Shown: one piece after another, positions 8,755-15,068 of the stretch
Layout: the number at the start of each line of letters is the position of its first letter
Numbering within the stretch: position 1 is the first letter of the stretch
Position numbers and translations under genes: made by a program
NCBI GenBank assembly: GCA_000166095.1
Contig: CP002278.1
Span: 390,001 to 422,000 of the forward strand
Direction of reading: 5' to 3'
Source of the DNA: Methanothermus fervidus DSM 2088
Lineage (GTDB): Archaea > Methanobacteriota > Methanobacteria > DSM-2088 > Methanothermaceae
DNA length: 32,000 bases
Notes under the pieces: model-generated
The model's database searches: none
What the model saw: the letters and a program-made list of their open reading frames with translations, nothing else
What the model was told of the DNA's origin: nothing

Positions 8755-10278
8755 ATGGCCAATAACCTTGCAAAGTGTTTAATGGTACAAGGCACATCAT
8801 CAAATGCTGGAAAGAGCGTATTAGTTGCTGCATTATGTAGAATATTTGCAAGAAAAGGATATAGTGTTGCACCTTTTAAATCACAAAATATGTCACTCAA
8901 TTCATATGCAACTGAAGAAAATTCAGAGATAGCAATGGCTCAAGCATTGCAAGCTGAAGCTGCCGGTGTGAAACCATCACATCATATGAATCCTATACTT
9001 TTAAAACCAAAAGGAGGGTTTATTTCACAAGTTATAGTGCATGGAAAACCTGTTGGAGATATGAGTTTTGATGAATACCAAAAAAAATTTCGAAAGAAAG
9101 CATTAGAGGCAATTAAAGAATCTTTGACATATCTAAGAAAACGTCATGACATAATAATAATAGAAGGAGCAGGTTCACCAGCTGAAATAAATATCCAAAA
9201 ATATGATTTGGCAAACATGAAAGTTGCACAATTAGCAGACTCAAATGTTATTCTTGTGGCAGATATAGATAGGGGCGGAGTTTTTGCATCAATTGCAGGA
9301 ACTTTTTTATTGCTGAATAAAGAAGATAGAAAAAGAATTAAAGGAATAATAATCAATAAATTTAGAGGGAATTTAGATATTTTAAAACCCGGAATAAAAA
9401 AAATTGAAAAAATTGTTAAAACACCAGTAATAGGAGTATTACCTTATAGTGAAGATTTGAGGTTACCTGAAGAAGATTCAGCATCCTTGGCTGAAAGAAA
9501 ATATAAAAAGAAAGGTAAAATAAAAATAGGAGTCATTCATTTACCAAAGATATCTAATTTTACTGATGTAGATCCATTAGAATCAGAACCAGACGTTAGT
9601 TTAAAATTTATAGGTTTAGATGATTCTTTAGATAAATTAGATGCAGTGATATTACCTGGTACTAGAAACACTGCTAAAGATTTAATTAAAATTAGAGAAC
9701 ATGGATTGGATGAAGAAATTATAGAATTTTCTAAAGATTCTATAGTATTTGGAATTTGTGGCGGATTTCAAATGTTGGGTACAAAAATAATAGATAAATA
9801 TCATAAGGAATCTAAATTTGAAGAGGTGGAAGGACTTGGACTCCTTGACTGTAAAACAAAATTTTCAATATCATCTAAAATAATATCTCAGAGCAAAGGT
9901 ATAGTCCTTGGCGGTGGAATATTTAAAAATATGGAAAATGTCGTTGTTGAGGGTTATGAACTTCATGAGGGCACAACAATATTAAAAAATGTTAGGCCTT
10001 TTATCAAAATAATTAAAGGTCATGGAAATTTATTACATGGTAAATATGATGGTGCAGTTAATGAAAATGTAGCAGGTACATATTTTCATGGTATATTCCA
10101 CAACCCGGAGTTTAGGACACAATTTGTAAATATATTGAGGAAAAAGAAAGGTTTAAAAACAAACAATCACATGAAAGATTACTACAAACAAAATAAAAAA
10201 TATTCTCTAGATAAATTAGCAGATATTGTCCTTAAGCATGTAGATATTAATAAAATAGAAGAGATGTTAGGGTTGTAA
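8755..10278 (+). CDS. cobQ: Cobyric acid synthase (CobQ/CbiP)
   Basis: N-terminal CobQ ATPase domain (MVQGTSSNAGKSVLVAALCR, IIIEGAGSPAEINI, NKFRGN) and a C-terminal GATase domain (GICGGFQMLG, GYELHEG, YFHGIF). The ORF opens at 8737; ATG 8755 gives the conventional N-terminus. Confidence 0.93.
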   Translation: MANNLAKCLMVQGTSSNAGKSVLVAALCRIFARKGYSVAPFKSQNMSLNSYATEENSEIAMAQALQAEAAGVKPSHHMNPILLKPKGGFISQVIVHGKPVGDMSFDEYQKKFRKKALEAIKESLTYLRKRHDIIIIEGAGSPAEINIQKYDLANMKVAQLADSNVILVADIDRGGVFASIAGTFLLLNKEDRKRIKGIIINKFRGNLDILKPGIKKIEKIVKTPVIGVLPYSEDLRLPEEDSASLAERKYKKKGKIKIGVIHLPKISNFTDVDPLESEPDVSLKFIGLDDSLDKLDAVILPGTRNTAKDLIKIREHGLDEEIIEFSKDSIVFGICGGFQMLGTKIIDKYHKESKFEEVEGLGLLDCKTKFSISSKIISQSKGIVLGGGIFKNMENVVVEGYELHEGTTILKNVRPFIKIIKGHGNLLHGKYDGAVNENVAGTYFHGIFHNPEFRTQFVNILRKKKGLKTNNHMKDYYKQNKKYSLDKLADIVLKHVDINKIEEMLGL

Positions 10279-10301
10279 TAAAAAATTTCTTTTGATCAGG
10301 A

Positions 10302-10865
10302 ATGGGAGGAACAATCTTGCATGAGAAAAGTAAGGAAATAGGGCTTAGGATAAAGGAATTAAGGAAATTATCAAACATTAGCGCAAAAGAAATGTCTAAA
10401 TTTCTTGGCATACCTGTAGAATTATATAAAAAATATGAAAATGGAGAAGAAGACATTCCTGTAAGTTTACTTTTTGAAGTTGCACAAAAATTAAATGTAG
10501 ATATGGGATTACTACTGACAGGTAAAGAAACAAGAATGCATATTTTTACAGTGACAAGAAAAGGTAAAGGTGTAAAAGTTAAAAGACGGGAAGATTATGA
10601 ATATGAAAGCCTAGCTGAAAAATTTATCCATAAAAAAGCAGAGCCTTTTATTGTTACAGTTAAACCAGGGAAAGGAAAACCCAAAATGAATAGTCATCCT
10701 GGACAGGAATTTGATTATGTATTGAAAGGCACCCTTAAAGTTTATATTCACAATCATGAAATCATTTTAAATGAAGGAGATTCTATATTTTTTGATTCTT
10801 CCTACAAACATGCAATGGAAGCAGTTGGTGACAAAGAAGCAAAATTCTTGGCTATAATAATGTAA
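10302..10865 (+). CDS. XRE-family HTH transcriptional regulator with C-terminal cupin domain
   Basis: N-terminal HTH ([37 protein letters not shown]) and a C-terminal cupin fold ([41 protein letters not shown]). Confidence 0.85.
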
Positions 10866-10879
10866 AGTGAGGTGTACTT

Positions 10880-12574
10880 ATGGCATCTTTACTCAATGAA
10901 TTTGTAAATAGAGTAAATTTTGAATCTTACGAAGATTTCAAGAAAAATTTTAAAATAATAGTTCCAGATAATTTCAATTTTGCATATGACGTAGTTGACA
11001 GATATGCTGAGGAAGTACCTGGAAAAAGGGCTCTTGTATGGTGCGATGACAACGGGAATGAAAAGATATTAAATTTTGCGGATATGAAATTACAATCAGA
11101 CAAAGTTGCTAACTTTTTACGAAATTTAGGTGTGAAAAAAGGCGATAAAGTAATGCTAACTCTTAAAGGAAGATATGAATTTTGGTTTTCATTGTTAGCC
11201 TTACATAAAATAGGAGCTATAGCTGTACCTGCTACCCATATGCTCAGAGAAAAGGATATAGTATATCGTATAAAAAAAGCAGGTATAGACACAGTTATCT
11301 CTGTAGATGATAAAGACTTAATTGAGTCTTATGAAAGCGCTGAAAAAAAATTAGGTGTAGAACTCAAGAAAATTATAGTAGGAAATGAAAGAGATGGATG
11401 GTTAAACTTCAGGGAAGAAGTTAAGAAAACACCTTCAAACTTTAAAAAACCAGAAGGTGACAAGTATCCTTCAGGGAATGACATATCTCTTATCTATTTT
11501 TCTTCGGGTACTACTGGAATGCCAAAGATGATCCAACATGATTTCAACTATCCACTTGCACATATAATAACAGCAAAATATTGGCAAAATGTTCGTGAAG
11601 GTGGATTACATTATACATTGTCAGACACAGGTTGGGCAAAATCTGTCTGGGGACAAATATATGGTCAATGGATAGCCGGAAGTGCAGTATTTGTTTATGA
11701 TTTTGATAGGTTTGATCCCCACAAAGTATTGAAGAAAATTGAAAAATATAAAATTAATACTTTTTGTGCACCTCCTACAGTATATAGATTCTTCATAAAG
11801 CAAGATTTATCCAAATATGATTTATCCAGTATAGAACATGCTGTAACTGCTGGTGAGCCTTTAAACCCAGAAGTATTTAAAAAATTTTATGAAGAGACTG
11901 GAATTAAAATCATGGAAGGGTTTGGACAGACAGAATGTACTTTATGTATAGCCAACTTCATTTGGATGGAACCAAAACCAGGATCTATGGGTAAGCCATC
12001 GCCACTTTACGATGTAAAAGTTGTTGACAAAGAAGGCAATGAAGTAGACATTGGAGAAGAAGGAGAAATAGCAATTGATACTTCTGATGGTAGGCCTTTA
12101 GGACTATTTCTAGGCTATTATAAAGATCCTGAAAAAACAAAAAAAGCATGGCATAATGATTTGTATCACACAGGAGATACAGCATGGGTAGATGAAGATG
12201 GATACTTTTGGTTTGTTGGAAGAAACGATGACGTAATAAATAGTTCAGGATATCGTATAGGTCCGTTTGAAGTAGAAAGTGCTATTATTTCACATCCTGC
12301 AGTTCTTGAATGTGCAGTGACTGGTTATCCAGATCCAATTAGAGGTCAGGTTGTAAAAGCAACTATAGTATTAACTGATGGATATGAACCATCTGAAAAA
12401 CTAAAAAAGGAAATTCAAGAACATGTAAAGAAAGTTACAGCGCCATATAAATATCCAAGAATAATTGAGTTTGTCGATGAATTACCAAAGACTATTAGTG
12501 GTAAAATCAAGAGGGCCGAAATAAGGAAAAGAGACGAGATGAGATATAAAAAAGAACAACAAAAGAAATTATGA
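10880..12574 (+). CDS. AMP-forming acyl-CoA synthetase (medium/short-chain acyl-CoA ligase-like)
   Basis: 564 aa with ANL-superfamily motifs: [56 protein letters not shown]. Confidence 0.9.
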
Positions 12575-12589
12575 TTTTGGGGATAGAGA

Positions 12590-13624
12590 ATGGGTGTACA
12601 ATTAGTTAGAGGGAATAGTGCAATAGTAATTGGAGCATTGTATGCTGGCTGTGATTGTTTTTTTGGATACCCTATTACACCTGCTAGTGAAATACTTCAT
12701 GAGGCATCTAGATATTTCCCAATGCTTGGAAGAAAATTCGTTCAGGCAGAATCAGAGGAAGCTGCCATAAATATGGTTTATGGAGCAGCTGCCGCGGGAC
12801 ATAGAGCAATGACAGCGTCTTCAGGACCTGGAATGAGTTTAATGCAAGAAGGTATTTCATATTTAGCTGGGTCTGAACTCCCTGCAGTAATTGTAAATAT
12901 TATGAGAGCAGGTCCTGGTTTAGGAAACATAGGACCTGAACAAGGTGACTATAATCAGATTGTAAAAGGCGGCGGACATGGTAATTATAAAAACATGGTT
13001 TTAGCTCCAAATAGTGTTCAAGAAATGTGCGATTTAACAATGGATGCATTTGACTTGGCAGAAAAATATAGAAATCCAGTTGTTATTCTTGCCGATGGTG
13101 TTTTAGGACAGATGGCAGAACCAATGAGATTTCCATCAAAAGCTATAAAACCAAATTTAAATAAAGATTGGGCAGTTCGTGGAACAAAAGACTCTCGAGG
13201 GAATCTTATAACATCTATACGTTTAGATTTTGACAAACTTGAAAAATTAAATAAAAAATTACAAAAAAAATACAAAAAAATGAAAGAAGATGTTAGATAT
13301 GAAGAATATAAAACAGAAGATGCTGAAATTATTTTGGTTGCTTATGGCATAAGCAGTAGGATCTCTAAACATGCTGTAGATATAGCAAGAGATAAGGGAA
13401 TTAAAGTTGGTTTATTGAGGCCTATAACTTTATTTCCATTTCCTGAAAATAAATTGAACAAGTTAAGTGAAGAAGGATGTAAGTTTGTAGCAGTGGAGAT
13501 GAGCAATGGTCAAATGAAAGAAGAAATAGAAAGAATAACAAAGCAAAAGGTTCACATTGTCAGCAGAATGGGTGGAAACATTATAGAAGTAAGAGATATC
13601 CTTCAAAAACTTTATAAATTCTAG
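12590..13624 (+). CDS. 2-oxoacid:ferredoxin oxidoreductase, alpha subunit
   Basis: 344 aa with [42 protein letters not shown] and [16 protein letters not shown], typical of Kor/Vor/Por alpha subunits. Confidence 0.9.
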
Positions 13625-13634
13625 GAGGAGCAGC

Positions 13635-15068
13635 ATGGGTAAAAAAATCTTAAAAAAACCAAATTCTCTTTACAATGTATTTCATAGAAAAGAATATGGG
13701 CCAAAAACTGCAACACATTATTGTCCTGGTTGTGGTCATGGGATTTTGCATAAGTTAATTGCTGAATGTATAGATGAACTTGGAATACAAGATCAAACTA
13801 TTCTCATAAGTCCGGTAGGATGTGCAGTTTTTGCTTATTATTATTTTGATTGTGGTAATATACAAGCTGCACATGGTAGAGCTCCAGCTGTTGGTACAGG
13901 AGTGTCCCGAGCTGAAGATGATGCAATAGTGATACTATATCAAGGAGATGGAGATCTTGCATCTATAGGTTTGAATGAAACAATACAGGCTGCCAATAGA
14001 GGAGAAAGAATGGCTGTATTTTTTGTTAATAATACTGTTTATGGTATGACAGGTGGAGAAATGGCTCCAACAACATTAGTGGATGAAATCACGACAACAA
14101 CACCCCAAGGTAGAGACCCAAAACTTACTGGTTATCCAATACATATATGTGAATTATTAAATAAACTTAAAGCTCCAGTCTTTATAGAAAGAGTCTCACT
14201 TTATGATGCAAAAAGTATAAGAAAAGCAAAAATTGCCATAAAAAAGGCTCTTAAAATACAAAAAGAAAGAAAAGGTTATGCATTTGTAGAGGTACTTTCA
14301 CCATGCCCTACTAATTTTAACCATGAAATAACCGACGTTAAAAATTTCATGAAAAAAATGGAAGAAGAATTCCCTGTAAAAAATTTCAGAGATTTTAGTA
14401 AAGATGTTAAACCAATGCCAAAAATGAAAAGTGATTTTTCAAAAGAAAGTTTAGATAAAATCTTTAAAATAAATGAAAGATCTTTGCCATCTCCAAAACA
14501 TGATAAAAGGTTTGAAGAAATTAAAATAAAGCTCGCAGGGTTTGGAGGTCAGGGAATTATCAGTATGGGATTCATTTTGGCTCAAGCAGGGTGCATTGAA
14601 AGAAAATATGTTACCTGGTATCCATCTTATGGTCCAGAACAAAGAGGAGGAATTTCTAGCTGTGATGTCGTTATTTCAGGAAGTGAAGTATCTTCTCCAG
14701 TTGTCCATGAACCTAATATATTGGTTGCATTTACTCAAAGTTCAATTGAAAAATTTAAAGATAAAGTAAAGGATGTTATTTTATATGATTCAACAACTTT
14801 CAGATTTGAAGAACCTACAGATTTAAACATTATAGCAGTTCCTGCATTAAAAATTGCAAAAAAAGAAGGTATTAAAAGAGCTGCCAACACTGCAATGTTA
14901 GGGGCTCTAACAGAATTAAATTTAATAAATATATCAAAAGATTCATTTAAATCAGCAATAAAAATGGCTTTTCAAGGAAAAGACAAAATAATCAACAAAA
15001 ATTTAGAAATATTTGAAAAAGGTGCAAAATGGGCAAGAGAAAATTTATCAGAAATTAATATCATCTAA
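13635..15068 (+). CDS. 2-oxoacid:ferredoxin oxidoreductase, beta (TPP/Fe-S) subunit fused to a gamma-subunit domain
   Basis: The N-terminal roughly 245 aa form the beta subunit ([24 protein letters not shown] motif, SPCPTN). After a Lys-rich linker, the region from about nt 14517 reads as a gamma subunit ([46 protein letters not shown]). Confidence 0.85.

Follow-up and report, generated by a model that had tools for sequence, protein, structure and literature searches.

The window analysed here is a 32,000-nt stretch of the Methanothermus fervidus DSM 2088 genome (G000:C1:390001-422000, where G000:C1 is the single contig of that genome, 1,243,342 bp at about 30% G+C). It carries four consecutive genes on the + strand that encode, in order, a protein combining an XRE-type helix-turn-helix (HTH) with a cupin domain, an AMP-forming acyl-CoA synthetase of the Macs type, and two subunits of a 2-oxoisovalerate:ferredoxin oxidoreductase (VOR). 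The enzymes are orthologous to characterised ones, and the linkage of the genes among methanogens is far beyond chance. We read the module, at a probability of about 70%, as an accessory operon that salvages exogenous branched short-chain acids and makes from them the 2-oxoacids that precede branched-chain amino acids. Judging from the relatives of its enzymes, the substrate is most likely 2-methylbutyrate, with isobutyrate a probable second.

The acyl-CoA synthetase and the oxidoreductase

The synthetase gene (10880..12574, +) encodes 564 aa with the Pfam domains AMP-binding (232 bits) and AMP-binding_C (89 bits) of the ANL superfamily, and its best solved relative is PDB 3ETC (845 bits, residues 1-553). 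PMC10455477, citing Meng et al. 2010, identifies 3ETC as MacsMa, the medium-chain acyl-CoA synthetase of Methanosarcina acetivorans, and gives 2-methylbutyrate as its preferred substrate. According to the same source, MacsMa adenylates C3-C8 acids and finishes the thioester step essentially only with 2-methylbutyrate; its defining residues are a Gly where acetyl-CoA synthetase (Acs) carries Trp416, plus an alternate Trp259 shaping the branched-acyl pocket, and it has a CBAL-like CoA pocket of Tyr460, Arg490, Tyr525 and Tyr527 (PMC10455477). All of these mutagenesis-defined residues are identical in the window ligase when it is aligned with 3ETC, whose chain bears a 23-residue tag, so that the numbering was checked against the motif III (YxxGD) sequence YHTGD at MacsMa residues 431-435, with which the YHTGD of the window aligns. 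In the acyl pocket the window has GFGQTE and VWGQ against GFGQTE and VWGK in MacsMa, and in the CoA pocket its SGYR, DPIRGQ and APYKYP fall on the corresponding residues of MacsMa. The sole change among the residues compared is the non-critical Lys461, which is Arg here.

The two enzymes are thus alike over their full length and in their pockets, and the Methanosarcina ortholog has the same regulator and vorCBA genes as neighbours; they differ in overall identity (about 63%, judged from Methanosarcina loci) and in host, the window enzyme belonging to a hyperthermophile-type genome and being known from its sequence alone. The best-scoring NCBIfam model for the window ligase is MbcS (NF047394; 518.5 bits, full length). 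MbcS of Staphylococcus aureus is selective for 2-methylbutyrate and isobutyrate (PMC10026030), and it supplies branched-chain fatty acid synthesis via FabH, which is absent from archaea. The window protein scores under the equivalog cut-off of that model (518.5 vs 850 bits), and we file it as a MacsMa ortholog and not as an MbcS equivalog. A separate true Acs (929 bits against a cut-off of 657) and a PaaK-like ligase are encoded elsewhere in the genome. An equation of MacsMa with locus MA4008 was discarded as wrong; MA4008 is the acetate transporter gene aceP of M. acetivorans (PMC2838876).

The alpha subunit, VorB (12590..13624, +; 344 aa), has the Pfam domains POR_N and PFOR_II and passes the VorB model (NF005507) with 558 bits against a cut-off of 399, while it fails both the model for 2-oxoglutarate synthase-type (KOR-type) subunits (NF006412, 323 vs 411) and that for PorA of pyruvate synthase (POR; 109 vs 550). 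The genome's own KorA and PorA show the opposite pattern of scores; they belong to housekeeping korABG (NF006412, 589 bits vs 411) and porCDAB (PorA 633 bits vs 550) clusters located elsewhere. VorA (13635..15068, +; 477 aa) is a fusion of beta and gamma subunits, in which TPP_enzyme_C spans residues 70-220 and POR (gamma) residues 304-464; its translation contains the cysteines of CPGCGHG, GC and PCP, as well as a GDGD motif for binding thiamine pyrophosphate (TPP), in keeping with a TPP/[4Fe-4S] beta portion. The closest characterised system is the VOR of Methanothermobacter marburgensis, which Tersteegen et al. in 1997 reportedly purified as anabolic VorABC. Its alpha subunit (about 350 aa) and its fusion of beta and gamma (about 478 aa) resemble those of the window at 64-70% identity (VorB is 70% identical to vorB of the vorCBA cluster in presumed Methanothermobacter genomes, and VorA 64% identical to the 478-aa Methanothermobacter vorA), and the same regulator and macs genes flank it.

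In the pathway that we propose, the Macs ligase would use ATP and CoA to convert the acid to its acyl-CoA, releasing AMP and PPi, and VorB/VorA, completed by an unlinked VorC subunit, would then reductively carboxylate the acyl-CoA with reduced ferredoxin and CO2. The expected products are 3-methyl-2-oxopentanoate or 2-oxoisovalerate, which the genome's IlvE would transaminate to isoleucine or valine; the cluster itself is without ilvE. Since ilvB, ilvC, ilvD and ilvE are all present in the genome above their cut-offs, a de novo route exists, and the module would serve as accessory salvage and not as the sole route. An AMP-forming ligase, being effectively irreversible, points to the anabolic direction. 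In Thermococcales, VOR is used catabolically, and an oxidative role in amino acid catabolism may be imagined here too; we give it scarcely any credence, as the AMP-forming ligase drives acyl-CoA formation and not ATP recovery, and the oxidation of amino acids yields methanogens no energy.

Assimilation of propionate is known in methanogens, and the module might instead act on another acid, either carrying propionate to 2-oxobutyrate for isoleucine or handling acetate or succinate as a spare pyruvate or 2-oxoglutarate synthase. The range of 2-oxoacid:ferredoxin oxidoreductases is often broad, and adenylation of C3-C8 acids by MacsMa (PMC10455477) would allow for such substrates. PMC10455477 also reports that MacsMa leaves thioester formation unfinished with most non-preferred acids; dedicated Acs, POR and KOR enzymes are encoded elsewhere in the genome, and the alpha subunit passes the VorB model while remaining under the KOR-type and PorA cut-offs. 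We therefore regard another acid as very improbable.

An initial annotation of this DNA had proposed activation of an organic acid to the acyl-CoA by an ANL-family synthetase of the medium/short-chain type, followed by reductive carboxylation. The domains and the 845-bit match to MacsMa bear out the type of synthetase, and orthology to MacsMa together with the VorB model supports the pathway. The same annotation had asked whether the synthetase might be a plain acetyl-CoA synthetase and the oxidoreductase a housekeeping KOR; the separate Acs and the MacsMa match speak against the former, and the VorB score (558 vs 399) and the KOR and POR encoded elsewhere against the latter. Its view that the substrate could not be read from the sequence was too pessimistic, since both enzymes have characterised homologues, and these point to branched acids of C4/C5. 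It had also presented the oxidoreductase as a two-gene enzyme, which needs correction: the two genes supply alpha and a beta-gamma fusion, and the gene for the delta subunit (2x[4Fe-4S]) is not in the operon.

Conserved gene order and a detached vorC

The four genes are intact open reading frames (ORFs) on the + strand separated by gaps of 14, 15 and 10 nt, in agreement with the adjacent same-strand genes and 10-15 nt spacers of the initial annotation. Each gap holds a purine-rich ribosome-binding site and nothing more, leaving no space for a promoter, which we count in favour of an operon. Among 80 public-genome loci fetched with the Macs alignment and searched by tblastn, the order regulator-macs-vorB-vorA is found in all archaeal loci of Methanobacteriaceae, Methanosarcina, Methanolobus, Methanomethylovorans and Methanothrix that extend far enough downstream; exceptions to the archaeal pattern include a Methanocella, one Methanobacterium metagenome-assembled genome and Methanobrevibacter olleyae. 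The macs-vorB gap in those loci measures 230-860 nt and holds the gene for VorC, an ORF coding for about 80 aa in which the motif CxxCxxCxxxCP occurs twice. Of 91 Methanobacteria genomes, 86 encode a Macs ortholog, and among 40 loci fetched from such genomes (about 18 genera) 37 have regulator-macs-vorC-vorB-vorA, many with gatD next, the remaining three having regulator-macs only. In Methanothermobacter marburgensis, the cluster reads regulator(182)-macs(559)-vorC(79)-vorB(352)-vorA(478)-gatD-gatE, lengths in aa, with overlapping stops and starts. Additionally, a Methanosarcina gene whose product agrees with 3ETC at nearly every residue from end to end (1268 bits) sits in a regulator-macs-vorC-vorB-vorA cluster, so that MacsMa and the Methanothermobacter VOR map to one conserved operon.

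The absence of this linkage from relatives, which the initial annotation had named as telling against its proposal, is not what the 37 of 40 class genomes show. They bear equally on the idea that the genes adjoin one another through genome compaction with no functional coupling. The genome is very compact (1.24 Mb), and two further genes, cobQ and nrpR, abut the module here and were not found beside it in the 40 Methanobacteria loci, as compaction would have it; set against this, the order of the module itself is kept across many genera and in Methanosarcinales as well, and we consider mere compaction barely conceivable as its explanation.

Two side observations concern copies of these genes in relatives. 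Some Methanobacteria have two tandem regulator-macs pairs before a single vorCBA (L034:3482-10779 and L109:7053-12444, one of which is titled Methanobrevibacter filiformis). In one relative, the Macs match (G049:C1:752213-753898) has three in-frame stops (TGA, TAG and TAA) with the rest of the cluster present, and it is possibly a pseudogene.

The delta subunit gene stands between synthetase and alpha subunit genes in every relative examined, M. marburgensis among them, whereas in the window it is gone from the operon, the macs-vorB gap being merely 15 nt. A VorC ortholog of 77 aa is encoded about 77 kb away (G000:C1:482403-482636, +; equivalent to L140:1904-2137), with 65-69% identity to its relatives, eight Cys, both CxxCxxCxxxCP motifs and matches to Fer4 dicluster families. 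The detached gene lies directly after a DNA ligase gene and abuts gatD-gatE; in relatives gatDE is the downstream neighbour of vorA, and it still adjoins vorC here. It takes no fewer than two rearrangements to arrive at this separation, unless a duplication was followed by losses that complement each other. As the three nearest sampled genomes (73-75% identity) keep the ancestral order, the detachment is specific to this lineage.

At the upstream end, the ORF of the first gene (10302..10865, +) spans 187 aa from ATG 10302, and within it an in-frame TTG (10317) stands 8 nt behind a GGAGG. Its orthologs are 182 aa long and align from about residue 3-6 of the window ORF, and the true start is for this reason probably TTG 10317, giving 182 aa. 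The stop of cobQ, for cobyric acid synthase (TIGR00313, 662 bits), is 23 nt before the ORF and 38 nt before TTG 10317, which implies either a promoter inside cobQ or read-through from it; a candidate promoter region may be placed in the 3' end of cobQ (10240..10301, +), with the AT-rich TATTAATAAAA at about 10245-10256. At the other end, the convergent nrpR gene on the opposite strand overlaps the 3' end of vorA by 21 nt (15048-15068). Both adjacencies are most simply due to genome compaction and not to a functional link, and linkage to nrpR as a conserved feature was rejected, as a search with nrpR found it in none of 40 relatives' loci. An Rfam search of the window returned no family, and so no riboswitch here. 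Scans for sigma-70 promoters and intrinsic terminators were at or below shuffle expectation, these models being bacterial and the host archaeal, and no terminator-like site was seen between cobQ and the regulator gene in a bacterial-type scan that is not meaningful for an archaeon.

The XRE-cupin protein and possible control of the operon

The first gene product contains an N-terminal HTH_3 (E 9.7e-10) and a C-terminal Cupin_2 domain (E 1.7e-18), in agreement with the XRE-cupin architecture given in the initial annotation, where it is a dedicated regulator, a role that is putative; its AlphaFold2 model (pLDDT 94) has five helices and a jelly roll. The best global match of the model is 1y9q, a Vibrio HTH_3 'regulator' (TM 0.71), and the family profile also matches SinR, the 434 repressor and other DNA binders. 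XRE-cupin factors of Pseudomonas (PauR, PsdR, ErfA) are local repressors of neighbouring metabolic genes (PMC7901475). These repressors and PuuR of Escherichia coli share with the window protein the HTH_3 plus Cupin_2 architecture, a length of about 185 aa and a position beside metabolic genes; the window protein differs from the Pseudomonas repressors in its archaeal host, in an invariant His-Glu-His triad and in having relatives that are sometimes fused to the ligase. By analogy, the protein would repress the operon until a ligand (perhaps the acid or its CoA ester, perhaps the 2-oxoacid) enters the metal-containing pocket of the cupin.

A different role is suggested by the company that the protein keeps. 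Its gene adjoins the Macs gene in 40 of 40 Methanobacteria loci and in 78 of the 80 loci from Bacteria and Archaea, among them Clostridia, Bacteroidales, Planctomycetota, Ignavibacteria and Lentisphaerota; in those bacteria the two form a stand-alone unit, often between genes on the opposite strand. An exhaustive search with the regulator yielded 83 representatives at E values up to 1e-30, and the hits include natural XRE-cupin-Macs fusions of 758-768 aa, with a C-terminal portion 53-58% identical to the window ligase and with 36-42% identity to the window regulator. Furthermore, His127, Glu131 and His165 are invariant in 48 homologs and form an enzyme-like triad, of which 1y9q is without the first His and the Glu. 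The best-scoring Foldseek matches are the phosphonate epoxidases HppE and Psf4 (PDB 1zz6 and 5u55; E 1.8e-14), which share the two-domain fold, and the family profile can be aligned along its whole length with HppE, the metal triads then coinciding (E 1.3e-12). Identity is about 23%, and chemistry of the HppE type depends on an oxidant, which does not fit a methanogen; the protein resembles HppE without belonging to its family.

The pathway could accordingly be the one proposed above with the XRE-cupin protein acting as a metal-binding partner of Macs and transcription controlled in some other way. As such a partner it might serve the ligase as an allosteric subunit or as one that senses the substrate; or it might itself be an enzyme, non-oxidative, with the acid or the acyl-CoA as substrate, such as an epimerase of the 2-methyl centre. 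We judge this possible, though unlikely. It would account for the fusions, for the invariant triad that falls on that of HppE, and for a pair that travels as a cassette across Bacteria and Archaea despite their unlike transcription machineries; a recognition helix that varies among genomes with an identical upstream element and a second such pair in the same genome also speak for it. Against these stand the genuine HTH_3 match, with SinR and the 434 repressor among the profile matches, the invariable position of the XRE-cupin gene as first in the operon, and the characterised XRE-cupin proteins, which are repressors (PMC7901475). In addition, the eight unfused bacterial loci searched contain no Rfam family and with it no riboswitch that might take over control, and oxygen-dependent chemistry of the HppE type is implausible in a strict anaerobe. 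A prediction of the complex between Macs and the XRE-cupin protein gave a median ipSAE of 0.30 against a mark of 0.32, which counts neither way on binding. On balance, a ligand-sensing local repressor is more likely than a ligase partner.

The second paralogous pair lies at G000:C1:32873-35117 (-) (equivalent to L005:1048-3292). Its XRE-cupin protein (185 aa) is 32% identical to that of the window and has the same triad, and its ANL ligase (555 aa) is PRK12583-like (797 bits). The pair stands directly after korABG-sucC here; neither kor nor sucC was found at the pair in the eight fetched relatives' loci, and in seven of eight sampled relatives a DEAD-box/DUF5814 helicase gene (about 820 aa) comes next after the pair.

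Upstream of the regulator gene, 58 Methanobacteria loci have no shared palindromic operator above background, and no enriched 8-mer was found in 46 bacterial loci. A heptamer, ATCATTA, is present in 35 of the 58 Methanobacteria loci (57 forward occurrences and one reverse), often repeated exactly, as a tandem ATCATTA-N3-ATCATTA, some 20 nt past a TATA-like box, for instance at L141:3052 and in locus L095, where the copies lie about 40 and 30 nt ahead of the regulator start. Across five whole genomes the tandem occurs two to three times per genome, compared with none for the reversed control, and its sites are the regulator-macs-vor promoter, the promoter of cdhA (TIGR00314, 1443 bits) and, once, atwA. 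In the source genome a single perfect site, with the heptad in triplicate, immediately precedes cdhA (G000:C1:506485-506511, -). In relatives the operon thus seems to share a control element with the carbon monoxide dehydrogenase/acetyl-CoA synthase, and the source lineage seems to have lost this element at the salvage operon. The tandem is a candidate operator that would link autotrophic acetyl-CoA synthesis with organic-acid salvage; as the operator of the XRE-cupin protein it was not adopted, since it also precedes cdhA, is missing in the window, and occurs identically in genomes whose helix-3 residues differ.

Several of these observations weigh against a regulated salvage operon as we propose it. 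There is no ATCATTA tandem near the window regulator and no recognisable operator there, and the gene follows cobQ at a distance of only 23-38 nt. Helix 3, the recognition helix, is acidic and variable (ETYxxYExG), and the invariant triad is enzyme-like. The ligase falls short of the MbcS equivalog cut-off, and the unlinked position of vorC leaves the stoichiometry and regulation of the full oxidoreductase uncertain.

Significance for methanogens

The enzymes and the physiological route are already known, and the operon, though well supported, is a fairly ordinary member of a type common to most related methanogens. The genome paper of Methanobrevibacter ruminantium appeals to reductive carboxylation of 2-methylbutyrate but names no genes for it (PMC2812497), and we found no description of the regulator-macs-vor operon or of its regulator in the full-text literature, which is not proof that none exists. 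What the present analysis adds is an assignment of named methanogen genes to the route by which branched fermentation acids become isoleucine and valine through reductive carboxylation, and the placement of MacsMa and the Methanothermobacter VOR in one conserved operon offers a physiological role for MacsMa.

The part likeliest to yield novelty is the cassette of XRE-cupin protein and ligase, which also occurs fused and has a metal site like that of an enzyme. The XRE-cupin proteins paired with ligases of the Macs type and of the second ANL class could be obligate metal-dependent ligase partners, fused or free, and not ordinary repressors, a generalisation that we hold to be doubtful. At the His-Glu-His site, such partners might sense or process the carboxylate, whether as 'trigger' proteins that tie gene control to the state of the enzyme or as a cupin enzyme of a new, non-oxidative kind; on this view the cassette would have spread as one unit between Bacteria and Archaea. 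For the salvage of branched acids itself, the same operon is found in rumen and gut genomes, presumably of Methanobrevibacter, and one such methanogen is reported to need 2-methylbutyrate (PMC2812497); the genes of the operon are thus candidate handles on the nutritional dependencies of methane producers.

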